From assembly GCA_017615545.1 (NCBI GenBank), contig JAFZZY010000065.1, positions 4,759-68,758 on the forward strand: a stretch of DNA of 64,000 nucleotides, in the 5' to 3' direction. Under the pieces are notes generated by a model. It worked only from the letters and a program-made list of their open reading frames with translations, was not told the origin of the DNA and ran no database searches. The stretch comes from Lachnospiraceae bacterium (GTDB lineage Bacteria > Bacillota > Clostridia > Lachnospirales > Lachnospiraceae). Shown piece by piece: positions 19,904 to 54,790 of this stretch (position 1 is the stretch's first letter; every line of letters begins with the position of its first letter). The translations under genes were made by a program, and so were the position numbers.

Positions 19904-20701
19904 ATGAGCAGAGATGCCGGAGTGATCCTGCGGATCCTGGATAATGACAGGCTGCGTGTGGAGACGTTACAGGAAGTGACGTCGACCAACGGGTTTTTGT
20001 TGTCGCGTGGAGCCGCCGGGGAAGCCGAGGGTCTGATCCTGACGGCAGACCGCCAGACGGCCGGCCGCGGTCGCAGCGGACGGAGCTTTTATTCGCCCGA
20101 TGTGGCAGGCATCTATACGAGCCTTCTTCTGCGTCCGAAGCTTACGATGGAGCAGATCGAGAAACTGACCCCGCTGGCGGCGGTCGCGGTCTGCGAGGTT
20201 TTGGAAGAGATCGCAGGCTGTCGTCTTCAGATCAAATGGGTCAATGATGTTTATCGCGATGGTCGAAAGATCTGCGGCATCCTGGCGCAGGCTTCGCCGA
20301 CATTTACCAACGGGATCCCGGATTATGTAGTCATGGGTATCGGGATCAATCTGTTCCCGCCGCAGGGTGATTTTCCGCAGGAGATCCGGGACGTGGCTGG
20401 TAGCCTTTGGGACGGGCCCGTTTCTGACCCGCTGATCCGTGAGAAGATCATTGGACGGCTGTGGAAACGATTTTATGAATTATATCAGGATCCGGACGAT
20501 ACCTCGTTCGTGGAAACCTATCGGGCGCACATGATGTTGCTCGGGGAGGAAGTCATCGCTTATGACGGGGCGGACGGTTCGGAACGGGTGGCCAGATTAA
20601 CGGGACTGACCGACGATTATGCACTTTTACTTCAATTTGAAGGAGAGAGTGCGCCGGCTGAAGTCCGCACCGGAGAGATTCGTATACGGAGGCGCCTATG
20701 A
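19904..20701 (+). CDS. birA: Biotin--[acetyl-CoA-carboxylase] ligase, class I (no N-terminal HTH)
   Basis: GRGRSGRSFYSP biotin-binding loop and KWVNDVY motif. 265 aa. Confidence 0.9.
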   Translation: MSRDAGVILRILDNDRLRVETLQEVTSTNGFLLSRGAAGEAEGLILTADRQTAGRGRSGRSFYSPDVAGIYTSLLLRPKLTMEQIEKLTPLAAVAVCEVLEEIAGCRLQIKWVNDVYRDGRKICGILAQASPTFTNGIPDYVVMGIGINLFPPQGDFPQEIRDVAGSLWDGPVSDPLIREKIIGRLWKRFYELYQDPDDTSFVETYRAHMMLLGEEVIAYDGADGSERVARLTGLTDDYALLLQFEGESAPAEVRTGEIRIRRRL

Positions 20702-22701
20702 TCTATTTTGTATGTGCCATGTCGGCAGAGGCGGCTCCGTTTCTTCGCATATTTGACTTGGAGAAGAGGCGCATGCCCTACCGGTATGAGGTCTATGAGA
20801 GCCGCGTCGGTGCGCCCGTGCAGGCCCGGCTGACGGTCAGTGGCATCGGCAGTTTTCACGCTTCCTGTGCGGCTGCCTTCCTGTTCGGACTCTATCCGCC
20901 GGGACCGGATGACCTTTTGGTCAATGTCGGCATCTGCGGAGCGTCGCCGTCTTTGAGTGGGGCGGAGCGCGGGACCATCTACCAGTGTGGAAAGATCCTG
21001 TCACCGGATGCTGCGGACAGCGTATATCCTGCGGTCCGGAGAGACCTGCCGTGGGAGGTTGCGACCCTGAAAACATCGGAGCAGGTCGTGACACTGAATG
21101 AGAATACAAAAGCCTCGGGCTTTTTATACGATATGGAGGGCTTTGCCTTCGCAAAGGCGGCTTTGGGATTCGCCGGGCCGGATCGGATGGCGGTCGTGAA
21201 GGCCGTGTATGACCGGTTGACAGAAATATCACGGCCGAAACCGCAGGAAGTCTATGATTTGCTGCAGCCGGTGGCCGAAGCGCTCCGGGATTGGGAGAAA
21301 AAGGCGGAACAGAAGGCGGCAGCGATTGAAGCATCCTCTGCCGGACAGTTAGTGCAACGTGCCCGCGGGATCGCCTCAGACGCCCGTGTTTCGGTTTCCA
21401 TGCGTGACCGCATATTTTCACGTACGGCCTACATTTCGGCCCTTTTTGGGGCTTACAGGCCCTCTGAGGGGGATGTAGAGTGGATTGACGCTGCAGAAGA
21501 AGCATTTTCCGAGGCGGAAAGCGCGATCGAGGCCGGACATTTCGTGAAAACGGAGCAAAACCGGTTGCTTGAAAAAATGGACGCGATTGCAGAGCGGTTT
21601 TATGATAACACCGAATTTGCGGAAGTAAGCGAGATGAACGGGGCGCCGGTCTCGGTCCTTTATGTGGAAGAGGAGGTCATGGACCATCCGCGCACGCAGA
21701 AGATCCGGGAGCATTTTCCGAAGGCGGATGTGATCCCGATCCGGCGGTACCGTGACGTGTTCAACCGTTCGCGGCAGGAACTGCCCGGCATCCTTCGGGA
21801 GGGGGCGGCGCGGGCGCTCATCGTGGCCCGCCAGGAGAACATCCACATCTATCCGGGCGCGCCGATGTGCCAGGACCACGGGCATCGAAAGTTCTTCTAC
21901 GCGTCGTTCGTGATGAACTGCCTGTTTGACTGTGAGTATTGTTATCTTCAGGGGATGTACCCCTCGAAGATGCCGGTGATCTTCATCAACCCGGAGGACG
22001 TGCTGGAGAAGATCGCCGCTATAGAAGAAACATTGGGGCCGGAGGAAACGGCCTATGTCAGCGTATCGTTTGACACCGATCTTTGCGCGTTTGAAGGTCT
22101 GCTTGGCTTCGTCGATCTAATCACGAAGTTTGCGAAGGAGCATCCGCGCATCGTGATCGAGATCCGAACGAAATCGGCGGGTCATGCGATCCCGCTGACC
22201 GGGGATATACCGAAGAACCTGCGCTTTGCGTGGTCGTTCTCGCCGGCGGAGGTCATTCGCCGATTTGAGCATAAGACGGCGGGCCTAGAGGCACGTTTGG
22301 AGGGCATGACCCGCGCCATCCGTGCCGGATATAAGGTGAGGCTTTGCTTCGATCCGTTGTTGCTGATTCCGGATGCGAGGCGGCGCTATGAGGAGCTGGT
22401 CGACCATGTGATGCAGGCGGCGCAGAAGGCGGCGGAAAGCATCGGGCAGACGCTTACGGCTTGTGTGGACGATGTCAGCACGGGGCCGTTCCGCATCGGT
22501 TCGGACCAACTGGCGAACATGCGACGCATTCGCCCGGACAGCCCGCTCGTTATGTATCCGTACGAGATCGAGGAGCACACCGCGCGTTATCCGAAGGCGA
22601 CCGAGACAGGTCTGATCGAGGCCGTGCGTGCGCGGCTTGCGACCTACGTCCCGGAGGACAGGATCTTTTGCTGGGGAGAAGATTATGGAACAAAACTATG
22701 A
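20698..22701 (+). CDS. Fusion protein: N-terminal PNP_UDP-type nucleosidase-like domain and C-terminal SPL-like (SplB/COG1533-type) radical SAM domain
   Basis: The N-terminus has MIYFVCAMSAEAAPF, TVSGIGSFHA, NVGICGA and YDMEGFAFAKAA (the DME-G motif of MtnN/Pfs-like enzymes). The C-terminus has the radical SAM triad C-x3-C-x2-C (CLFDCEYCYLQ; Cys codons at 21919, 21931, 21940) in an SplB-like context. Its start overlaps the birA stop (ATGA). Confidence 0.7.
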   Translation: MIYFVCAMSAEAAPFLRIFDLEKRRMPYRYEVYESRVGAPVQARLTVSGIGSFHASCAAAFLFGLYPPGPDDLLVNVGICGASPSLSGAERGTIYQCGKILSPDAADSVYPAVRRDLPWEVATLKTSEQVVTLNENTKASGFLYDMEGFAFAKAALGFAGPDRMAVVKAVYDRLTEISRPKPQEVYDLLQPVAEALRDWEKKAEQKAAAIEASSAGQLVQRARGIASDARVSVSMRDRIFSRTAYISALFGAYRPSEGDVEWIDAAEEAFSEAESAIEAGHFVKTEQNRLLEKMDAIAERFYDNTEFAEVSEMNGAPVSVLYVEEEVMDHPRTQKIREHFPKADVIPIRRYRDVFNRSRQELPGILREGAARALIVARQENIHIYPGAPMCQDHGHRKFFYASFVMNCLFDCEYCYLQGMYPSKMPVIFINPEDVLEKIAAIEETLGPEETAYVSVSFDTDLCAFEGLLGFVDLITKFAKEHPRIVIEIRTKSAGHAIPLTGDIPKNLRFAWSFSPAEVIRRFEHKTAGLEARLEGMTRAIRAGYKVRLCFDPLLLIPDARRRYEELVDHVMQAAQKAAESIGQTLTACVDDVSTGPFRIGSDQLANMRRIRPDSPLVMYPYEIEEHTARYPKATETGLIEAVRARLATYVPEDRIFCWGEDYGTKL

Positions 22702-25069
22702 TATGACGAAAGTATATGAGCTTTTGAGCAATGGCCGGCTGACCGAGGCGGAGCAGGAGATGCTCGCCATGGCGGCGCGTGCGCGTGAGGAGAAAAACGC
22801 GCAGCAGGAGCTCGTCATTTTGAATGAACTCATCGGTTTCTATCGCGACTGCGGGCGTTTCTCGGAGTCGCTTTCGGCCGGCCAGGATGCGATGCTGTTG
22901 GCGCGCGACATGGACCTCGTGGGCACCATTCCCTACGGTACCACGCTCATCAACGTGGCCAATGCCCTGCGGGCGGCGGGTCACGCCGACGCGGCGCAGA
23001 CCTACTTCACCCAGGCGCGTGAGACCCTCGCCCTGCATTTGCCGGAAAATGATATCCTGTTCGCCAGTCTGCAGAACAACCTGAGCCTGCTCCTGCAGGA
23101 GAAGGGTGATTTTGTCGGCGCGGCGAGTGAAGGCGAGAAGGCGCTCGCCATCGTGCGGGAGAACCTGAAGGAAGCGCGCGAAGCACAGGATACCGATCGC
23201 GTGAAGGATCTTTCCACGAAGGAAGCGATCTCCCTGACGAATATTGCATTGTCCAAACAGCACATGGATCAGGACGCGGAGGCGGAGGAACTGTTAACGC
23301 AGGCGCTTTCGTTCTTCACCGGTCTGATGCCGTCAGATTTCCACTACAGCGCGGCGCTTTCAGGCATGGGAGACCTCTGCCTGCGGCGCAAAGAATACGA
23401 GCTTGCGGCGGAATATTACGAGACGGCTCTTTCCGAGATCCGTTTTCACATGGGTGTGAACAACTTTCACGAGATCGTTTTGGAGCATCTCGAGGAGGCC
23501 TACCGCGGCATGGGAACGACGGCGCAGGAATATCATGAGAGCCTGTCCGGAATCGAGATCTGCCGGCGATATTACCGTGCGTTCTGGCTGCCTATCTATA
23601 AACGAAATTTCAAGACGAAGCTTCCGAAGATCGCCTGCGGCCTGATGGGTGAGGGCTCGGAATGCTTCGGTTATGACGATAAGATCTCCCGCGACCACGA
23701 CTTCGGTCCGGGCTTCTGCATCTGGATCGATGACAGCGTGAGCGAGGAGCAGGAGAAGGAACTCCGCACGGCTTATGCACTGCTGCCGCCGACTTATATG
23801 GGTTACACACGTTTTGCCTCGGCCAATGAGACGGAGGGCCGCGTCGGCGTGATGCGGACTTCGGATTTCTTCCGGCGCATGTTCGGGCTACCGAAGGTTC
23901 CCGCGACGCAGGAGGAATGGCTGGCCGTGCCCGAGGAGGGCCTGGCACAGGCGACCAACGGAGCCGTGTTCTACGACGGCAGCGGAGCATTTTCCCGACA
24001 GCTTAAGCAGCTGAAGGACGGCTATCCGGAGACCGTGCTCCTGCGCAGGATCGCCCAGCAGCTCGGCCTGATGGAGCAGAGCGGACCGTACAACTGCATG
24101 CGCGCGTTCCGGCGCGGCGATGCGGTGACGGCGCGCCTCTATCTGGACCGTTTTGCGACCGCATCCATGCGCTTCCTGCACCTGATGGCGAACCGTTATG
24201 CGCCCTATATGAAGTGGCTGTACCGCAGCACGACCGAGATCGATGCGGACTTCGCATCCGCGATCGCGGCTCTGCTTGAACACACCGATGACGCCGAGGC
24301 GACGAAGGCTTCGATCGACGATGTCATCGTTAAGGCCAATGCGCTCCTGAAGCGAGGCGGTTATATCGACGAAGAGACTGCTGGGAAACTGTACGAAGGC
24401 TCCGCCGGACTGATGGATGTCGCGCGGATGCTTTCTTCGAAGGCAGACGCGATGGCTCCGAAGGAGGGCGCCGTTATGGCGATCATCGAGTTGGAGTGGG
24501 AAGCCTTCGACCTGACGCAGAACGAAGGCGGGCGCGCCGGCTGCCAGGATGACTGGGAGACCTTCTCGATCATGCGTCGCAGCCAGTACGAGACATGGCC
24601 CGCTGACCTGCTCGAATCCTACCTTTCGGACCTGATGGCGGCAAAAGCGGAAGGCCGAAACCTGATCACGGAGAAATACGGCCGGATGATGGAGAGCACC
24701 GCGCCGGCAGAGTATGCGAAGATCCGGGATGCATTGCCCGTGCTGGACGCGGACCAGATCCGGATCCGCGAGGCGATCGTTGCGATCTACGTCGGCTGGA
24801 TGGAGGAAGTCGCGGCGGCGTACCCGAAATTCGCCGGGCAGGCACGCGTGATCCACACCTCCGAGGATACGATGTGGCGTACCTCGTACGAGACGTATCT
24901 GCGCGGCGAGATCTCGACGTATTCACCGCAGACTCTGACGCTTTTCGGGCGAATGACGGCACAGGCGGCGCAGAACGGCGAGAACCTGTCGAAGGCGATT
25001 TTACTTCGGACGGCGCAGCTTTATGGTTACGGTTCGATCGAAGAGGCCGAGGCTGCGATCGAAGACTGA
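22685..25069 (+). CDS. Three-module protein: TPR repeats, nucleotidyltransferase-like DUF4037 and DUF4125
   Basis: ATG at 22685 follows GGGGAGAAG and overlaps the upstream gene by 17 nt. The N-terminal ~280 aa are TPR-like. The middle has a pol-beta NTase-type motif, GEGSECFGYDDKISRDHDFG (GS...D-x-D). The C-terminus has EWEAFDLTQNEGGRAGCQDDWETFSIMRRSQYETW, which I recall as DUF4125. Confidence 0.6.
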   Translation: MEQNYDMTKVYELLSNGRLTEAEQEMLAMAARAREEKNAQQELVILNELIGFYRDCGRFSESLSAGQDAMLLARDMDLVGTIPYGTTLINVANALRAAGHADAAQTYFTQARETLALHLPENDILFASLQNNLSLLLQEKGDFVGAASEGEKALAIVRENLKEAREAQDTDRVKDLSTKEAISLTNIALSKQHMDQDAEAEELLTQALSFFTGLMPSDFHYSAALSGMGDLCLRRKEYELAAEYYETALSEIRFHMGVNNFHEIVLEHLEEAYRGMGTTAQEYHESLSGIEICRRYYRAFWLPIYKRNFKTKLPKIACGLMGEGSECFGYDDKISRDHDFGPGFCIWIDDSVSEEQEKELRTAYALLPPTYMGYTRFASANETEGRVGVMRTSDFFRRMFGLPKVPATQEEWLAVPEEGLAQATNGAVFYDGSGAFSRQLKQLKDGYPETVLLRRIAQQLGLMEQSGPYNCMRAFRRGDAVTARLYLDRFATASMRFLHLMANRYAPYMKWLYRSTTEIDADFASAIAALLEHTDDAEATKASIDDVIVKANALLKRGGYIDEETAGKLYEGSAGLMDVARMLSSKADAMAPKEGAVMAIIELEWEAFDLTQNEGGRAGCQDDWETFSIMRRSQYETWPADLLESYLSDLMAAKAEGRNLITEKYGRMMESTAPAEYAKIRDALPVLDADQIRIREAIVAIYVGWMEEVAAAYPKFAGQARVIHTSEDTMWRTSYETYLRGEISTYSPQTLTLFGRMTAQAAQNGENLSKAILLRTAQLYGYGSIEEAEAAIED

Positions 25070-25786: not shown

Positions 25787-25836
25787 TTGAAAGCCAAAGT
25801 ATTTGAAACTCAAATCAAATACCTGCAATTTCAAAC
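25784..25836. promoter_or_regulatory. Cluster of TTTGAAA-type half-sites and palindromes; candidate operator for the MarR/FabT-like regulator
   Basis: TATTTGAAA occurs at 25784 and 25800. ATTTGAaacTCAAAT is a perfect inverted repeat at 25801-25815, nested in GTATTTGA...TCAAATAC (25799-25822). An inverted TTTCAAA sits at about 25829. Confidence 0.45.
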
Positions 25837-25865
25837 AGAAGCCTAAAAGGCAAAAGGAGACTATC

Positions 25866-26099
25866 ATGGTTGAGAAGATTATTGAACTCGTAAAGGAGCA
25901 GCTTGACTGCGGAAATCAGGAGCTTACCGAGGCTACCAGCTTTAAGGACGATCTGGGTGCAGATTCCCTGGACCTGTATGAGCTCGTGATGCAGCTCGAG
26001 GAGACTTTCGGAATCACCATTCCTACAGAAGATTTCAACGAAGTCAAGACCATCGGCGACGTTGCCGCATATCTTGAGAAGAAGGGTGTGTCCCTGTAA
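25866..26099 (+). CDS. acpP: Acyl carrier protein
   Basis: DLGADSLDLYELVMQLEE phosphopantetheine-attachment motif. ATG at 25866 follows AAGGAGA. Confidence 0.93.
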   Translation: MVEKIIELVKEQLDCGNQELTEATSFKDDLGADSLDLYELVMQLEETFGITIPTEDFNEVKTIGDVAAYLEKKGVSL

Positions 26100-26114
26100 T
26101 TAAGGAGTGATCCA

Positions 26115-27041
26115 ATGCAGACAAAGCTTACGAATTTACTTGGGATCCGTTATCCCGTGATCCAGGGCGGTATGGCCTGGGTCGCTGAGTATCACCTCGC
26201 AAGCGCGGTCTCGAACGCGGGCGGCCTCGGTATCATCGCGGCCGCATCGGCACCGCCCGAAGTGGTACGTGATCAGATACGCCAGATGAAAAAACTCACC
26301 GATCAGCCGTTCGGGGTCAATGTCATGATGTTGAATCCGAATGCGCCGGAGGTTGCAAAGATCATCGTCGAAGAGGGCGTTCCGGTCGTGACGACCGGCG
26401 CAGGTTCTCCGGCGGCATATATGGAAATGTGGAAGAACGCGGGCGTGAAGGTATTGCCCGTGGTAGCGAGCGTAGCGATGGCAAAACTATTGCAGCGTGA
26501 AGGCGCGGATGCGGTGATCGCCGAAGGCATGGAAGCCGGCGGACACATTGGCCACACGACGACCATGGCGCTGGTACCGCAGGTGTGTGACGCGGTCGAC
26601 ATCCCCGTGGTCGCTGCGGGCGGCATCGCGGACGGACGCGGCCTCTGCGCGGCGCTGATGCTGGGCGCACAGGGCGTGCAGATGGGCACGGCCTTCCTGG
26701 TCGCAAAGGAAGCGCAGGTCCATGAGAACTACAAAAACCGCGTGATCAAAGCGAAAGATATCGATACGGTCATCACCGGCCTTTCGACCGGTCATCCGGT
26801 GCGCTGCCTGCGCAACGACATGACGAAGGCCTATCTGAAACTGGAGCAGGAGGGCGCGCCGTTCGAGGAGCTGGAGCAGCTCACGCTGGGCACCCTGCGA
26901 AAAGCCGTGATCGACGGCGACGTGACGAACGGAACCGTCATGGCCGGCCAGATCGCGGGCATGATCAAAGAGCCGAAGACCTGTGAAGAGATCATCACAC
27001 AGTTGGTAGCACAGGCCGACCGCTTATGGGAGCAGAGATGA
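26115..27041 (+). CDS. fabK: Enoyl-[ACP] reductase II (FMN-dependent, nitronate monooxygenase fold)
   Basis: YPVIQGGMAWV, AGGIADGRG and GAQGVQMGTAF motifs, in a fab-operon context. Confidence 0.88.
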   Translation: MQTKLTNLLGIRYPVIQGGMAWVAEYHLASAVSNAGGLGIIAAASAPPEVVRDQIRQMKKLTDQPFGVNVMMLNPNAPEVAKIIVEEGVPVVTTGAGSPAAYMEMWKNAGVKVLPVVASVAMAKLLQREGADAVIAEGMEAGGHIGHTTTMALVPQVCDAVDIPVVAAGGIADGRGLCAALMLGAQGVQMGTAFLVAKEAQVHENYKNRVIKAKDIDTVITGLSTGHPVRCLRNDMTKAYLKLEQEGAPFEELEQLTLGTLRKAVIDGDVTNGTVMAGQIAGMIKEPKTCEEIITQLVAQADRLWEQR

Positions 27042-27967
27042 GTAAGATCGCATTTATTTTTCCCGGACAGGGCAGTCAGTATGTCGGAATGGGCCGGGGT
27101 TTTTATGAAAAAGAGGAGGTAGCGCGCAAGGTCTACGAAGAAGCGAGTCAGATGACCGGCCTGGACCTGGCGCATATCTGCTTTACGGAAAATGAACAAC
27201 TGAACCAAACCATGTACACGCAGATCGCGATGTTCACGACCGAGCTGGCGATGCTGCGCACACTGCAGTCGAAGGGCTTTTCGGCCGATACTTATGCGGG
27301 CCTGTCCCTCGGCGAATATGCGGCTGTCGTAGCCTCCGGCGCGATGGAGCAGATGGACTCGTACAACATCGTCCGTAATCGTGGATGCTACATGCAGGAG
27401 GCCTACCCGACGGGCGGCGGCATGACCGCCGTACTGGGCGCAGAGCAGGCGCTGGTCGAGAGCGTATGCGCGGAGACCGCGGGCGTGGTCTGTGTGGCAA
27501 ATTATAACTGTCCCGGTCAGATCGTTATCTCCGGTGAGAAGGAAGCGGTCGACGCTGCGGCTGCGGAACTGACGAAACGTGGCGTGAAGCGTTGTCTTCC
27601 GCTGAAGGTTTCCGGTCCCTTCCATTCGCCGCTTTTGACGGGTGCGGGCGAGCTTCTGCGCGGAGATCTGGTGCAACTGAAACTGCAGGATCCGAACCCT
27701 GTCTATCTTTCGAATGTGACGGCGGATGTCGTCAGCAAGAAAGAGGAGATCACCGATCTCCTGGCACGTCAGGTGTCGTCCTCCGTGCGCTGGCAGCAAT
27801 GCGTGGAGCGCATGCTCGCCGATGGCGTAACGAAGTTCGTAGAGATCGGTCCCGGCAAGACATTGTCCGGTTTCATGAAGAGGATCGACGGCTCCGTAAA
27901 GGTCGTTTCCCTCGAGAAATACGAAGACCTGCCGACAGTGATCGAATATCTGAAGGCAGAGGATTAA
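27038..27967 (+). CDS. fabD: Malonyl-CoA--ACP transacylase
   Basis: FIFPGQGSQYVGMG and GLSLGEYAA (active-site Ser) motifs. ATGA overlap with fabK. Confidence 0.93.
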   Translation: MSKIAFIFPGQGSQYVGMGRGFYEKEEVARKVYEEASQMTGLDLAHICFTENEQLNQTMYTQIAMFTTELAMLRTLQSKGFSADTYAGLSLGEYAAVVASGAMEQMDSYNIVRNRGCYMQEAYPTGGGMTAVLGAEQALVESVCAETAGVVCVANYNCPGQIVISGEKEAVDAAAAELTKRGVKRCLPLKVSGPFHSPLLTGAGELLRGDLVQLKLQDPNPVYLSNVTADVVSKKEEITDLLARQVSSSVRWQQCVERMLADGVTKFVEIGPGKTLSGFMKRIDGSVKVVSLEKYEDLPTVIEYLKAED

Positions 27968-27994
27968 CACCTCAGACACGAAAAGGGGTACAGT

Positions 27995-28735
27995 ATGGAA
28001 ACAGGAAAGATCGCGCTGGTCACCGGCGCGGGTAAGGGCATCGGTGCCGCATGCGCTAAGAAACTGGCGGCCATGGGGCACACGGTGATCATCAATTATA
28101 ACGGGTCGAAGGCGGCCGCCGAGGAAACGGCGGCACAGATCGCTTCGGCCGGCGGCAAGGCGTACACGATGCAGTGCGACGTTTCCGATCCGGAAGCGGT
28201 GAGCGCGATGGTGGATACCATCCAGAAAGAATACGGTGCCGTCGACATTTTGGTAAACAACGCGGGCATTACCCGCGATGAACTGATGCTTCGCATGAAG
28301 CCGGAGGATTTCGACGCGGTCATCCGCACGAATCTGACGGCCGTATTTTATGTGATGCAGGCTTGCATCCGCGGCATGATCAAAAAGCGTAAGGGTAAGA
28401 TCGTCAATATCTCTTCGGTCTCCGGCGTGATCGGAAACGCGGGCCAGGCGAACTATTCCGCAGCGAAAGCGGGCGTGATCGGCATGACGAAGACCGCGGC
28501 CCGGGAGCTTGCGGGACGGAACATCACGGTCAATGCTGTGGCTCCGGGCTTTATTTCGACGGACATGACGAACGCTCTTTCCGATGCGGCGAAAGAGGGC
28601 ATCCTTTCGAAGGTGCCGATGGCGCGCGGCGGAAGGCCCGAGGATGTGGCGAATGCCGTCGCCTTCCTCTGCTCGGAGGAGAGCGATTACATTACCGGTC
28701 AGGTGCTGTGCGTTGACGGCGGCATGGCCATGTAA
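27995..28735 (+). CDS. fabG: 3-oxoacyl-[ACP] reductase
   Basis: SDR motifs TGAGKGIG, NNAG and YSAAKAG. Confidence 0.93.
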   Translation: METGKIALVTGAGKGIGAACAKKLAAMGHTVIINYNGSKAAAEETAAQIASAGGKAYTMQCDVSDPEAVSAMVDTIQKEYGAVDILVNNAGITRDELMLRMKPEDFDAVIRTNLTAVFYVMQACIRGMIKKRKGKIVNISSVSGVIGNAGQANYSAAKAGVIGMTKTAARELAGRNITVNAVAPGFISTDMTNALSDAAKEGILSKVPMARGGRPEDVANAVAFLCSEESDYITGQVLCVDGGMAM

Positions 28736-28748
28736 GTAGGAGGTTTAT

Positions 28749-29984
28749 ATGAGTAAGAGAGTCGTGATCACCGGTATGGGCGCCATCACGCCGATCGGTA
28801 AGGACGTGGATACGTTCTGGAACGAAGTGAAGAAGGGGACCATCGGTTTTGCGCCGATCTCCGCCTTTGAGAATCAAGACAGCCGCGTTACCATGGCGGC
28901 AGAAGTGAAGGGTTTTGACGCGAAGGAATACATGGATCCGAAGAAGGCCAGACGCATGGAGCGTTTCTGCCAGTTCGCCGTAGCCGCGGCGGGCCAGGCA
29001 CTTAACGATTCCAAACTGGATATGGAGAAAGAAGATCCTTACCGCGTAGGTTGCAGCATTTCTTCCGGCATCGGAAGCATGCAGTGCATGGAGCGCGAGC
29101 ATGCGCACCAGATGGAGAAGGGACAGGAGCGCGTTTCGCCGCTGATGGTGCCGCTTCTCATCTCCAACATGGCAGCGGGCAATGTTGCGATCTGCTATGG
29201 TTTGAAAGGTAAAAATATCAACGTTGTCACCGCTTGTGCGAGTGGTACGAACGCTATCGGCGAGGCTTTCCGCTCGATCGAGCATGGCGAGGCCGATGTC
29301 ATGCTGGCGGGCGGTACCGAGGCAGCTGTTTGTGCCTTCGGCATCTCCGGTTTTGCATCGATGACGGCACTTTCCCCCGCGACCGATCCGGCGCGTGCAT
29401 CCCTGCCGTTCGATAAGGACCGCAGCGGTTTCGTCATGGGTGAAGGCAGCGGTGTTCTGGTCCTGGAGGAACTCGAGCACGCAAAGGCCCGTGGCGCGAA
29501 GATCTACGCAGAGATCGTCGGCTATGGCTGTTCATGCGACGCATACCATATCACCTCCCCCGCAGAGACCGGCGAGGGCGCAGCACGCGCCATGGAAAAT
29601 GCGCTGGCGGACGCCGGGGTCGATAAGAATGCGATCACCTATATCAACGCGCACGGAACAGGCACACATTACAACGACCTGTTCGAGACCCGCGCCATCA
29701 AGCTGCTCTTCGGTGAGCATGCGAAAGAGATCCGCGTCAACTCGACGAAGTCCATGATCGGCCACCTGCTCGGCGCTGCCGGAGCGGTCGAGGCGATCAT
29801 TTGCGCGAAGACAGTGGAGGAAGGCTTCATTCACCGTACCGTCGGCTTCACCGAGGCGGAAGAAGAGATGGATCTGGATTATTGTAAAGAAAACCGTGAG
29901 GAAGCGGTGCCGTACGCTTTGTCGAATTCCCTGGGATTCGGCGGCCACAACGCATCCATCCTCCTGAAGAGATACGAGGCATAG
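28749..29984 (+). CDS. fabF: 3-oxoacyl-[ACP] synthase II
   Basis: Active-site TACASG, HGTGT and GHLLGAAG motifs. Confidence 0.93.
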   Translation: MSKRVVITGMGAITPIGKDVDTFWNEVKKGTIGFAPISAFENQDSRVTMAAEVKGFDAKEYMDPKKARRMERFCQFAVAAAGQALNDSKLDMEKEDPYRVGCSISSGIGSMQCMEREHAHQMEKGQERVSPLMVPLLISNMAAGNVAICYGLKGKNINVVTACASGTNAIGEAFRSIEHGEADVMLAGGTEAAVCAFGISGFASMTALSPATDPARASLPFDKDRSGFVMGEGSGVLVLEELEHAKARGAKIYAEIVGYGCSCDAYHITSPAETGEGAARAMENALADAGVDKNAITYINAHGTGTHYNDLFETRAIKLLFGEHAKEIRVNSTKSMIGHLLGAAGAVEAIICAKTVEEGFIHRTVGFTEAEEEMDLDYCKENREEAVPYALSNSLGFGGHNASILLKRYEA

Positions 29985-29993
29985 GAGGCAGCC

Positions 29994-30440
29994 ATGGAAG
30001 CGGAAGAGAAGAAGTCTTTGAACATCAACGAGATCATGCAGATCCTGCCGCACCGCCACCCGTTCCTTTTGCTGGATACGGTGACGGATCTGGTCCCCGG
30101 CGTTTCGGCCGTGGGTCATAAGGCAGTCACTTATACCGAGCCGTTTTTCGCGGGACATTTTCCGCAGGAGCCCGTTATGCCGGGTGTTTTGATCATCGAA
30201 GCACTGGCACAGGCAGGCGCCGTGGCGATCCTTTCATTGCCCGAGTTTGCAGGTAAGACTGCGTACTTCGGAGGCATCAAAAACGCGCGGTTCCGCCGCA
30301 AGGTCGTGCCGGGCGACGTGCTGGATCTTTCTGTGCAGATCGAAGCGGTGAAAGGTCCGGTCGGCACGGGTAAGGCTGTGGCGACCGTAGGCGGACAGAC
30401 CGCCGTGACCGCGGAACTTACGTTTGCGATCGGAATGTAA
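29994..30440 (+). CDS. fabZ: 3-hydroxyacyl-[ACP] dehydratase
   Basis: LPHRHPFLLLD and FFAGHFPQEPVMPGVL hotdog-fold motifs. Confidence 0.93.
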   Translation: MEAEEKKSLNINEIMQILPHRHPFLLLDTVTDLVPGVSAVGHKAVTYTEPFFAGHFPQEPVMPGVLIIEALAQAGAVAILSLPEFAGKTAYFGGIKNARFRRKVVPGDVLDLSVQIEAVKGPVGTGKAVATVGGQTAVTAELTFAIGM

Positions 30441-35001: not shown

Positions 35002-35073
35002 TGCATCTGAGTGGAATCGAACCACCGCACATGGCTCCGGAGGCCATTGCTCTATCCACTGAGCTACAGATGC
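35002..35073 (-). tRNA. tRNA-Arg (anticodon CCG)
   Basis: The reverse complement folds as a cloverleaf: GCATCTG TA GCTC AGTGGATA GAGC A ATGGC CTCCGGA GCCAT GTGC GGTGG TTCGATT CCACT CAGATGC A. It has a 7-bp acceptor stem, a T-loop TTCGATT, and an anticodon loop with U33 and CCG. No CCA is encoded. Confidence 0.92.
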
Positions 35074-39049: not shown

Positions 39050-39399
39050 ATGATACTAGGCTCGAAAAGTACCAGGTGAACAAGATCGAAGTTTATTTTT
39101 TCTTCATCGGTATCCCGCTGAAGAAAAAACCAAACTTCTCATGTTGCAGGTTTTGTGTTCAAAACCTGCAACGCGAACAAACATGAGCCATACCGGTTTC
39201 CGAAGGAAAGCGAGGAGTATGGCGAATGTTTGTAGGATTTCGAGAGCGTCGAAGACGCGGAGAAATCCGTAGTATCATGAATGACATAGACAAGGCTCGA
39301 AAAGTACCGCCTGGCATGCTCGCATGCCAAGGGCGGACCTTGAGAGCCGTAGTATCATGAAGAATAAAGGAAGGGGCGGAAGCCCCATAATAGGTAATC
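39050..39399. repeat. Repeat- and hairpin-rich 350-bp spacer between the DUF58 and transglutaminase genes
   Basis: Exact direct repeats: aggctcgaaaagtacc (39058 and 39293) and ccgtagtatcatgaa (39267 and 39347). Hairpins: ttgcaggttttg-tgtt-caaaacctgcaa (about 39142-39169), acaaacatgagccatac...gtatggcgaatgtttgt, ggatttc...gaaatcc, and ccgcctggcatgc..gcatgccaagggcgg. Confidence 0.8.
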
Positions 39400-54530: not shown

Positions 54531-54790
54531 TAAGTTAAGTAAAGACCATCATTGAATAGAGCCTGGGGTGTTCGACAAGCTTGCATTTTTGAACCTACAT
54601 GTTGACATACGGGATTCCTATATCGCCAGGTGGATGACAGGCCTCCGTAGTAGTGGAAGTCAGAAGTCTGGTTGCGGAAACCCACCTAGCTGGGGCTAGG
54701 AGTCAAAAAGCAAGAAACGGCATTCCGGGTTCTATTTGACCCCAAAAACGGGAAAAGGGTCACGATCCTATGCGGAAAGGAGATGAGGGT

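Follow-up and report, generated by a model that had tools for sequence, protein, structure and literature searches.

A predicted adenine-nucleoside hydrolase fused to an SPL-fold radical SAM domain in the Lachnospiraceae

Organization of the locus

The window, by which we mean the whole 64,000-nucleotide stretch of Lachnospiraceae DNA that was analysed (contig JAFZZY010000065.1), contains an open reading frame of 667 amino acids in which a nucleosidase domain, a helical domain and a radical SAM domain with the fold of spore photoproduct lyase (SPL) follow one another. The features of the gene and its immediate neighbours are as follows, with the evidence for each in brackets.

19904..20701, + strand: upstream gene, biotin-protein ligase of the BirA type, without HTH (domain search)
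20688..20692, + strand: ribosome-binding site GGAGG, with the ATG 5 nt further on (sequence read)
20698..22701, + strand: whole fusion gene, nucleosidase domain, helical domain and SPL-fold radical SAM domain (ORF, 667 aa)
20698..21240, + strand: adenine-nucleoside hydrolase domain of the MTAN / futalosine-hydrolase type, residues 1-181 (profile and Foldseek)
20728..20730, + strand: E11 codon, equivalent of MTAN Glu12 (invariant; aligned to AMEEE of S. aureus MTAN)
21130..21138, + strand: D145-M146-E147, equivalent of the MTAN E-M173-E174 ribose-binding motif (invariant; aligned to EMEA of MTAN; codons checked)
21211..21213, + strand: D172 codon, equivalent of MTAN Asp197 (invariant; aligned to SD of AVSDLA)
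21241..21642, + strand: family-specific five-helix domain, residues 182-315 (AlphaFold2 model, alignment)
21643..22698, + strand: SPL-fold radical SAM domain, residues 316-667 (Pfam SPL, Foldseek)
21868..21870, + strand: C391 codon, fourth conserved cysteine (invariant; aligned to the Cys of the S76C mutant 4rh0)
21919..21945, + strand: C408-x3-C412-x2-C415 [4Fe-4S]/SAM motif with Y414 and Y416 (alignment; sequence read)
22682..25069, + strand: downstream gene, TPR + DUF4037 + DUF4125 protein (domain search)

The ATG of the fusion gene overlaps the birA stop codon as ATGA, as read from the sequence, and this translational coupling is confined to the clade to which the window belongs, the neighbour being kept only in loci L001-L003. 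On the other side, the TPR + DUF4037 + DUF4125 gene shares 20 nt with the fusion gene and sits at the position that is occupied in 72 of 80 other loci by an SDR oxidoreductase gene.

The frame between 20698 and 22701 has zero internal stops, and full-length homologues of the same unbroken architecture are present in independent assemblies from different sources (27-92% identity, 93-100% coverage). Because these assemblies, together with 24 of the best 80 genome loci, share the architecture, an assembly artefact is excluded as the origin of the single frame. The preliminary description had proposed one uninterrupted polypeptide joining an MTA/SAH-nucleosidase-like domain to an SPL-like radical SAM domain, and this is borne out: neither a stop nor a frameshift is present, both domain assignments are right by profile, Foldseek and Pfam SPL, and the two motifs on which they were based lie exactly where it placed them, D145-M-E-G at nucleotides 21130-21141 and C408-LFD-C412-EY-C415 at 21919-21942. 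An AlphaFold2 model of the 667-residue protein has a pLDDT of 86.2, and its pTM of 0.85 suggests that the predicted domains are held in a fixed arrangement.

A divergent nucleosidase domain with a complete catalytic set

As a single sequence the N-terminal domain gives weak matches (PNP_UDP_1, E=0.0012; futalosine hydrolase, E=7e-5), and a profile built from 31 N-domains matches solved MTANs with E=2e-11. Foldseek searches with the AlphaFold2 model recover the MTAN and futalosine hydrolase structures 5cce, 3dp9 and 4bmz at E ~4e-12 and TM 0.62-0.68. No curated cut-off is reached by the domain (PF01048, 18.7 versus 25.1 bits; TIGR03664, 22.7 versus 124.7; NF004168, 21.2 versus 129), which places it on a divergent branch of the superfamily, as neither an MtnN nor an MqnB orthologue. 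The futalosine hydrolase model is the best or second-best match for 31 of 31 N-domains (best E=3.8e-10), although all of these similarities are far below the model cut-off, whereas the MtnN models are matched by just 15 and 12 of the 31. Futalosine hydrolase acts on the product of a radical SAM adenosylation.

In MTAN, Glu12 activates the water and Asp197 protonates adenine N7. Residues E11, M146, E147 and D172 are invariant among 31 diverse relatives and align to MTAN E12, M173, E174 and D197 (E. coli numbering), so that a check of the catalytic Asp/Glu residues against MtnN, which the preliminary description had left to be made, finds the full set present. We thus predict from the alignment that the domain is a catalytically competent adenine-nucleoside hydrolase, and the strict invariance of the four residues points to selection for hydrolysis itself in the active-type family. 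The domain shares its fold, profile homology and catalytic Glu, Met-Glu and Asp with MTAN and MqnB. However, it is about 45 residues shorter than MTAN, and differs from both in having an invariant Y110-P111 (followed by D112 in at least 90% of relatives, although the window protein reads Y-P-A), in bearing the five-helix domain of about 130 aa at its C terminus, and in being always fused to or adjoining one particular radical SAM enzyme in the loci examined.

A conserved helical domain

The segment between the two enzymatic domains had been taken for a linker of about 130 residues, but it is a structured and conserved domain. The AlphaFold2 model predicts five helices within residues 182-315 (182-212, 214-229, 233-252, 260-278 and 284-301) with pLDDT 83-93, and the alignment contains the motif S-x-x-M-x3-L-x2-LL-x-Y and a lysine-rich K-x-E-x-K...LE-L. 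Searches of Pfam and the PDB with this domain gave zero matches. It is conserved in 74 of the best 80 loci, and accompanies the nucleosidase gene whenever the pair is split.

The SPL-fold radical SAM domain

The C-terminal domain matches Pfam SPL (PF20903) over residues 320-579, scoring 53.9 bits where the cut-off is 27, and SPL 4fhg is matched by sequence at E=6e-8. Foldseek aligns the model to the whole SPL chain (E 1e-17, TM 0.78; for 4fhg, E 1.4e-17 and TM 0.77) at 15-16% identity. Resemblance to SplB of G. thermodenitrificans (4fhc, 4fhg and 4rh0) extends over the fold of the full 340 residues and to the CX3CX2C motif, and Y414 and Y416 align to SPL Tyr96 and Tyr98. C391 occupies the site that provides the hydrogen-atom donor in clostridial SPL (Cys77 in C. 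acetobutylicum; Ser76 in G. thermodenitrificans), a role described for this position in SPL (PMC3467042). Residues D411, D459, D461, D592, R490 and R548 are also invariant and surround the predicted active site.

There are several departures from SplB. The domain has a serine at the Bacillus-type Cys140 position, its C-terminal 80 residues are outside the SPL profile match, its partners are a nucleosidase and an SDR, and its hosts include non-sporulating genera. The equivalog cut-offs for SplB are not reached by the domain (TIGR04070, 74.3 bits versus 400; TIGR03886, 49 versus 437).

A widespread module in fused and split forms

The nucleosidase/radical SAM pair, either fused or encoded by two genes that overlap, occurs in hundreds of Lachnospiraceae species, and was found in at least 568 matching stretches of species-representative genomes, mostly from this family. 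Locus counts refer to the best 80 genome loci among these stretches: 24 are fused, 55 are split and one is interrupted by a contig end. The split genes are nearly all adjacent, and for 47 of 54 split loci the radical SAM gene reads in the +1 frame, its conserved core beginning no more than 2 nt from the nucleosidase stop. Fused forms fall into at least six separate clades of the C-domain tree, fusion having arisen several times. The pair is an obligate module of ancient coupling, and such a pattern of fusion and fission is typical of consecutive pathway steps. An SDR oxidoreductase gene lies directly downstream in 72 of the 80 loci, although not adjacent in the window's own clade. The distribution is housekeeping-like, and the neighbourhood survey found neither a transporter nor a regulator attached to the module.

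A sister clade of about 500 aa has lost all of the nucleosidase catalytic residues together with the helical domain, and retains the radical SAM domain and the SDR. Its AlphaFold2 model (pLDDT 90, pTM 0.89) still matches MTAN in Foldseek at E 5e-6. The radical SAM and SDR core can thus dispense with nucleosidase activity, which fits a scavenging role.

That the architecture had not been described holds for the literature, in which we found no paper on a family combining a nucleosidase with an SPL-like radical SAM domain, and the family appears to be unstudied. It does not hold for the sequence databases, in which the full-length architecture is common (approximately 40 clusters at 50% identity among the top 150 matches) under the names 'hypothetical protein', 'MTA/SAH nucleosidase family protein' and 'SPL family radical SAM protein', some entries naming spore photoproduct lyase.

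Possible functions of the module

We consider it rather probable (approximately 0.7) that the substrate of the nucleosidase is the adenosyl product made by its radical SAM partner, whether an adduct or 5'-deoxyadenosine. The radical SAM domain would cleave SAM reductively, and the adenosine-containing molecule leaving its active site would be the substrate from which the nucleosidase removes adenine; the radical SAM substrate would itself be a small molecule rather than spore-photoproduct DNA.

The variant that we narrowly, and tentatively, favour would follow by analogy the logic of MqnE before MqnB/MTAN in the futalosine pathway and of HpnH before HpnG in making the hopanoid side chain. The 5'-deoxyadenosyl radical would add onto an unsaturated substrate, adenine would then be cut from the adenosylated product by the nucleosidase, and the freed ribose carbonyl would be reduced by the SDR, where present. 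HpnH attaches an adenosyl group and HpnG next takes off the adenine, MqnE yields aminofutalosine, and in both MqnE/MqnB and HpnH/HpnG the ribose-derived carbons are processed further after adenine loss (PMC13459092). These systems resemble the module in the genetic linkage of a radical SAM enzyme to a PNP_UDP-family nucleosidase. However, the radical SAM half here is of the SPL family, its family matches being SPL and a weak generic Radical_SAM with no homology to MqnE or HpnH, and the likeness is in logic only. To our knowledge there is no example of MqnE/MqnB or HpnH/HpnG as one polypeptide, nor of an adenosylating enzyme within the SPL family. Taken to its full extent, the proposal would be a third, independently evolved radical adenosylation pathway, in which an SPL-fold enzyme, an MqnB-like nucleosidase and an SDR yield a hitherto overlooked C5-polyol-extended compound near-universal in Lachnospiraceae, and in this specific form we regard it as somewhat unlikely. 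Several observations count against adenosylation: the fourth cysteine and the tyrosines equally suit an SPL-like abstraction or scission lyase that releases 5'-deoxyadenosine, the sister clade with the dead nucleosidase would need to borrow a housekeeping MTAN for hydrolysis, the neighbourhood survey found no conserved candidate for an olefinic substrate and no further pathway genes, the window's clade lacks the adjacent SDR, and the similarity to futalosine hydrolase is far under the model cut-off.

Built-in clearance of 5'-deoxyadenosine is a plausible alternative, although we think it somewhat doubtful. 5'-Deoxyadenosine inhibits BioB and LipA, and Pfs relieves this inhibition. Here the SPL-like domain would abstract hydrogen and release 5'-deoxyadenosine, the nucleosidase would convert this to adenine and 5-deoxyribose and so lift product inhibition, and the SDR would have the real product, or perhaps 5-deoxyribose, as its substrate. 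The complete MTAN catalytic set is consistent with this, as is the conservation of Cys391, Tyr414 and Tyr416, which is expected for abstraction or scission chemistry yielding 5'-deoxyadenosine, and the clade with the dead nucleosidase is easily explained if a housekeeping MtnN takes over a non-essential clearing step. However, an activity that merely helps should often be lost, but here the catalytic residues show no variation in 31 of 31 sampled active-type sequences and a dedicated helical domain is maintained with them; likeness to futalosine hydrolase is more consistent among the N-domains than likeness to MtnN; fusion would do little to help catch a small by-product that diffuses freely; and we know of no dedicated by-product nucleosidase for any radical SAM enzyme. 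Because of the obligate coupling, the helical domain, the SDR and the likeness to futalosine hydrolase, we favour a pathway of consecutive steps at least equally with by-product scavenging.

The order of the steps could also be reversed, with MTA, SAH or 5'-deoxyadenosine as the starting substrate of the nucleosidase. The SPL-like lyase would next cleave the 5-substituted ribose so formed (for example at a C-S bond) and the SDR would reduce the sugar, giving an anaerobic salvage route. The gene order nucleosidase, radical SAM, SDR, fused or overlapping, agrees with this, the invariant Asp, Glu and Arg residues near the predicted active site are compatible with a polyhydroxylated substrate, and the housekeeping-like distribution with neither transporter nor regulator fits as well. 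We nonetheless think it improbable: to spend a SAM on every nucleoside salvaged would be wasteful if SAM were not regenerated, the neighbourhood lacks methionine or SAM-related genes, a riboswitch search of ten loci and of the window found neither an S-box nor any other class, and the first step would be missing in the clade with the dead nucleosidase. A mainly structural or regulatory (adenosyl-sensing) nucleosidase-like module, with hydrolysis secondary, seems to us more improbable still; the sister clade does keep the fold in the face of losing the catalytic residues, and the pTM values of 0.85 and 0.89 suggest tight domain packing, but all four catalytic residues are strictly invariant in the active-type family.

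The least probable reading, and a very improbable one, is that the protein is a divergent but genuine lyase of spore photoproduct, or of a related DNA or RNA lesion, with an accessory nucleosidase. It would account for the fold match over the whole chain, the passing of the Pfam SPL threshold, the clostridial-type fourth cysteine with both tyrosines, and the name given to the protein in some databases. In SPL the DNA-binding beta-hairpin contains Arg304 and Tyr305, and Arg273 and Lys309 bind phosphate; here the Pfam match halts at profile position 258 of 338, short of the hairpin region, and the domain is near-neutral or slightly acidic (median pI 6.5). The low identity, a score of 74 bits against the 400-bit equivalog cut-off and the near-constant SDR partner also argue against it, as does the presence of the pair in Oribacterium, Agathobacter and Lachnospira, which are non-spore-forming genera.

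MTAN-type protonation of N7 cannot work on a 7-deazapurine, a point that bears on comparison with queuosine salvage, and no tgt, queT or other Q-related neighbours and no preQ1 riboswitch were found near the module loci. In C. difficile, queuosine is salvaged by the nucleoside hydrolase QueK and the radical SAM queuine lyase QueL (PMC11130926). This is likewise a nucleosidase with a radical SAM lyase in a gut Firmicute, but QueK belongs to another hydrolase family (IPR023186) and QueL (Q186P0) is listed solely under the generic IPR006638.

The Lachnospiraceae rank with the most abundant bacteria in the gut of humans and ruminants, and in hundreds of their species this module is labelled 'hypothetical' or mislabelled 'spore photoproduct lyase'. 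Whether the nucleosidase acts on an adduct or on 5'-deoxyadenosine, annotation of the module genes as a DNA-repair photolyase is probably wrong. If clearance of 5'-deoxyadenosine is true, the protein would be the first case in nature of a radical SAM enzyme that carries its own cure for product inhibition, a design useful in biocatalysis; if an adenosylated product is hydrolysed, there would be a new reaction type for the SPL fold and a new ribose-derived metabolite to find. The cultured hosts Anaerocolumna aminovalerica DSM 1283 and Lachnoclostridium phytofermentans make the function directly testable.

The fusion gene and its flanks

The gene at 20698-22701 encodes a nucleosidase domain, a helical domain and a radical SAM domain in one 667-aa open reading frame, in keeping with the uninterrupted frame claimed in the preliminary description, and both of the motifs quoted there are found, D145-M-E-G at nt 21130-21141 and C408-LFD-C412-EY-C415 at nt 21919-21942. 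A GGAGG ribosome-binding site lies 5 nt 5' of the ATG. The possibility of a mis-joined frame had also been raised, and we reject an assembly artefact because full-length homologues with 27-92% identity have the same fused frame in independent assemblies (Logan, ENA, JGI). The features of the window are as follows:

19904-20701, + strand, biotin-protein ligase (birA), short type, 265 aa, without the N-terminal repressor HTH; its stop overlaps the fusion-gene ATG
20698-22701, + strand, fusion gene, one 667-aa open reading frame
22682-25069, + strand, 795-aa protein combining TPR repeats with DUF4037 and DUF4125; its first 20 nt lie within the fusion gene
25803-30440, + strand, fatty-acid synthesis cluster acpP, fabK-like, fabD, fabG, fabF, fabZ (names read from translations)
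35002-35073, - strand, tRNA (Rfam, above gathering score)
39133-39277, + strand, Clostridiales-1 RNA (Rfam, 63.3 bits, above gathering score)
54557-54735, + strand, 6S RNA (Rfam, 84.6 bits, above gathering score)

The birA stop and the fusion-gene ATG share the sequence ATGA, which suggests translational coupling of the two genes in the window's clade only. A link to biotin is rejected because birA is conserved as a neighbour only in the three closest relatives (loci L001-L003), as is the TPR-DUF4125 gene, and these adjacencies look like lineage synteny with no functional link. The fatty-acid and ilv/leu-side neighbours also lie beside the module only in the closest relatives. Upstream of the fusion gene are ilvH, ilvC, leuC, leuD and an ApbE-like gene, the last identified by domain scan and the others named from translations.

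Domains of the fusion protein

Single-sequence searches with the N-terminal part give weak matches (futalosine hydrolase at E=0.002 and nucleosidase at E=0.0035 with the whole protein, PNP_UDP_1 at E=0.0012 with the isolated domain), and these are not enough as sole evidence. A profile from an alignment of 31 diverse N-domains matches solved MTA/SAH nucleosidases (MTAN) at E=2e-11, and the invariant residues fall on MTAN catalytic positions when this profile is aligned to S. aureus MTAN: E11 corresponds to Glu12, M146-E147 to Met173-Glu174 and D172 to Asp197 (E. coli numbering). Loss of the catalytic Asp or Glu had been named as evidence against a nucleosidase; both are present and invariant. 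In an AlphaFold2 model based on 16 such fused homologues of full length (mean pLDDT 86.2, pTM 0.85), the N-domain is closest to MTAN and futalosine hydrolase by Foldseek search of the PDB (E ~4e-12, TM 0.62-0.68), so that profile and model both bear out the proposed MTA/SAH-nucleosidase likeness. All 31 N-domains match the futalosine hydrolase model, and 15 and 12 of them match the MtnN models. A word-indexed search for distant stand-alone relatives of the N-domain was dominated by in-family Oribacterium proteins.

The stretch described earlier as a linker does join the two enzymatic parts in frame, but it is not unstructured: residues 182-301 are predicted by AlphaFold2 to form five helices (pLDDT 83-93) with the conserved motifs S-x-x-M-x3-L-x2-LL-x-Y and K-x-E-G-K...L-E-x-L, the latter lysine-rich, and we regard it as a predicted domain. 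Its profile has matches at 74 of 80 related loci, and searches of Pfam and the PDB with it returned no significant match. In several homologous proteins of 400-450 aa (P0063, P0073, P0077, P0079 and others), the match is confined to the radical SAM domain and the second half of the helical domain; these forms reflect a third split point or, alternatively, wrongly assigned starts.

The assignment of the C-terminal part as radical SAM of the spore photoproduct lyase (SPL) type stands on three comparisons: residues 320-579 pass Pfam SPL with 53.9 bits against a cut-off of 27, the solved G. thermodenitrificans SPL is matched by sequence at E=6e-8, and Foldseek aligns the domain with SPL over the entire 340-residue chain (E 1.4e-17, TM 0.77-0.78). 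The domain retains the cluster motif, its Tyr414 and Tyr416 correspond to SPL Tyr96 and Tyr98, and its invariant Cys391 aligns to Geobacillus Ser76, which is Cys in the S76C mutant 4rh0; this position is that of the hydrogen-donor cysteine in clostridial SP lyases (PMC3467042). Several features, however, weigh against SplB. With the SplB equivalog model the protein reaches 74 bits where the cut-off is 400, structural alignment gives only 15-16% identity to SPL, Ser occupies the Bacillus-type Cys140 position, the profile match ends at position 258 of 338, short of the DNA-binding-hairpin region, the domain is near-neutral in charge, and the module is coupled to an SDR oxidoreductase. The module is also present in non-spore-forming genera. 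On these grounds we would not file the module protein as SplB.

Distribution and organization of the module

When a single genome was scanned for each species, at least 568 stretches encoded a relative, overwhelmingly from Lachnospiraceae, with Lachnoclostridium phytofermentans, Anaerocolumna, Oribacterium and strain JC7 among the cultured hosts listed. A library clustered at 50% identity contains 1425 proteins matching at E<=1e-30, and about 40 of its top 150 matches are full-length fusions of 600-756 aa. These carry names such as 'hypothetical protein', 'MTA/SAH nucleosidase family protein' and 'SPL family radical SAM protein'. The family and its architecture are described in no paper that we found, as the preliminary description had anticipated, but sequence-database entries with this architecture are common, under these generic names. 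The two folds are both known, and the nucleosidase-helical-radical SAM(-SDR) module is best called uncharacterised and widely conserved. The enzymes called 'SplB-like' in SOS operons (PMC3765255) belong to another context.

Gene layout was scored in the best 80 of the at least 568 loci by running three HMMs, one per module, over stop-to-stop open reading frames. The pair is a single fused gene at 24 loci and is split at 55, and the remaining locus is truncated by the end of its contig; some of these calls rest on metagenome-assembled genomes, with each state seen in many independent genomes. The helical domain is always in the nucleosidase gene at the split loci. The radical SAM gene occupies the +1 frame at 47 of 54 split loci, its conserved core beginning no more than 2 nt from the nucleosidase stop, and in the loci examined its reading frame starts with a Met about 30 nt within the nucleosidase gene, so that the two genes overlap (for example, L035 6001-7873, L066 6001-7951 and L043 5023-6874). 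Separate initiation at this Met seems likely, and programmed frameshifting, raised by the constant +1 overlap, appears unlikely because the radical SAM frame has its own start. A single indel would be enough to fuse such genes. In a rough neighbour-joining tree of C-domains without support values, the fused forms are spread over at least six separate clades, pointing to repeated fusion or fission, and the pairing of nucleosidase and radical SAM domains is ancient. At L051 the nucleosidase gene (520-1371) is 4.6 kb from the radical SAM gene (from ~5992), and at L031 it is on the opposite strand.

The sole conserved neighbour of the module is a classical SDR oxidoreductase of ~240 aa, which lies directly 3' on the same strand at 72 of the 80 loci and 5' at two more (L017 and L075). 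The few loci lacking an adjoining SDR include the window and L001-L003, where birA and the TPR-DUF4037-DUF4125 gene flank the module, the latter in the slot held elsewhere by the SDR. No SDR orthologue was found within the window; FabG was considered and rejected, the similarity being generic (mostly 24-26%, and 35% for one of six queries). A specific family was sought for the SDR, with generic SDR and FabG-like matches only. Rfam searches upstream of the module found no riboswitch or leader in the window or at 10 loci.

A sister clade with a degenerate nucleosidase domain

In sister proteins of ~500 aa (P0019, P0023, P0029 and P0031), the N-terminal part is homologous to the nucleosidase domain (E 1e-19 to 1e-25), with E11, D172, the DME motif and the G-x-C-G loop all missing; the helical domain is absent as well. 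The nucleosidase fold is retained (model pLDDT 90.4, Foldseek match to MTAN at E 5e-6), and judging from the missing residues the domain is catalytically dead. Genes of this clade are at the following loci:

L081, 6001-7497
L085, 5001-6515
L086, 5001-6692
L088, 5001-6521

One or two SDR genes still lie 3' of them, and nearby genes encode aldo-keto reductases containing Fe-S domains, together with a DUF3048 protein and a MatE pump.

Possible functions of the module

The module combines two catalytically equipped domains, obligately coupled and frequently accompanied by an SDR, and the nucleosidase substrate is most likely an adenosine-containing molecule made at the radical SAM site. By analogy, we tentatively favor (probability roughly 0.38) a pathway in which the radical SAM domain would add a 5'-deoxyadenosyl group to its substrate, the nucleosidase would then take adenine off the adenosylated product, and the SDR would reduce the freed ribose. 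Only two natural pathways with radical SAM attachment of 5'-deoxyadenosyl are described, MqnE followed by MqnB/MTAN and HpnH followed by HpnG, and in both a PNP_UDP-family nucleosidase next strips the purine base (PMC13459092). The N-domains resemble futalosine hydrolase (31/31) more consistently than MtnN (15 and 12), which would fit such a pathway, and ribose reduction would give the SDR an obvious role. Nearly equally likely, and itself a tentative reading, is the original proposal that the nucleosidase hydrolyses 5'-deoxyadenosine released by radical SAM turnover. Such clearance agrees with the SPL-like Cys/Tyr set and with the sister clade in which the nucleosidase is dead, but does not account for why the catalytic residues are so strictly conserved or why there is an additional helical domain, and by-product clearance by a dedicated nucleosidase is to our knowledge without precedent.

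Smaller shares of the probability go to a nucleosidase-first salvage route, to a mainly structural role for the nucleosidase domain, and to a true lesion lyase. Queuosine salvage by an analogue of QueK/QueL, compared by description and gene context, was dropped as unsupported; no Q genes or preQ1 riboswitch were found near the module in the neighbour survey and Rfam searches, and an Asp that protonates N7 is unusable on a 7-deazapurine. The sole InterPro listing for QueL is a generic radical SAM entry.
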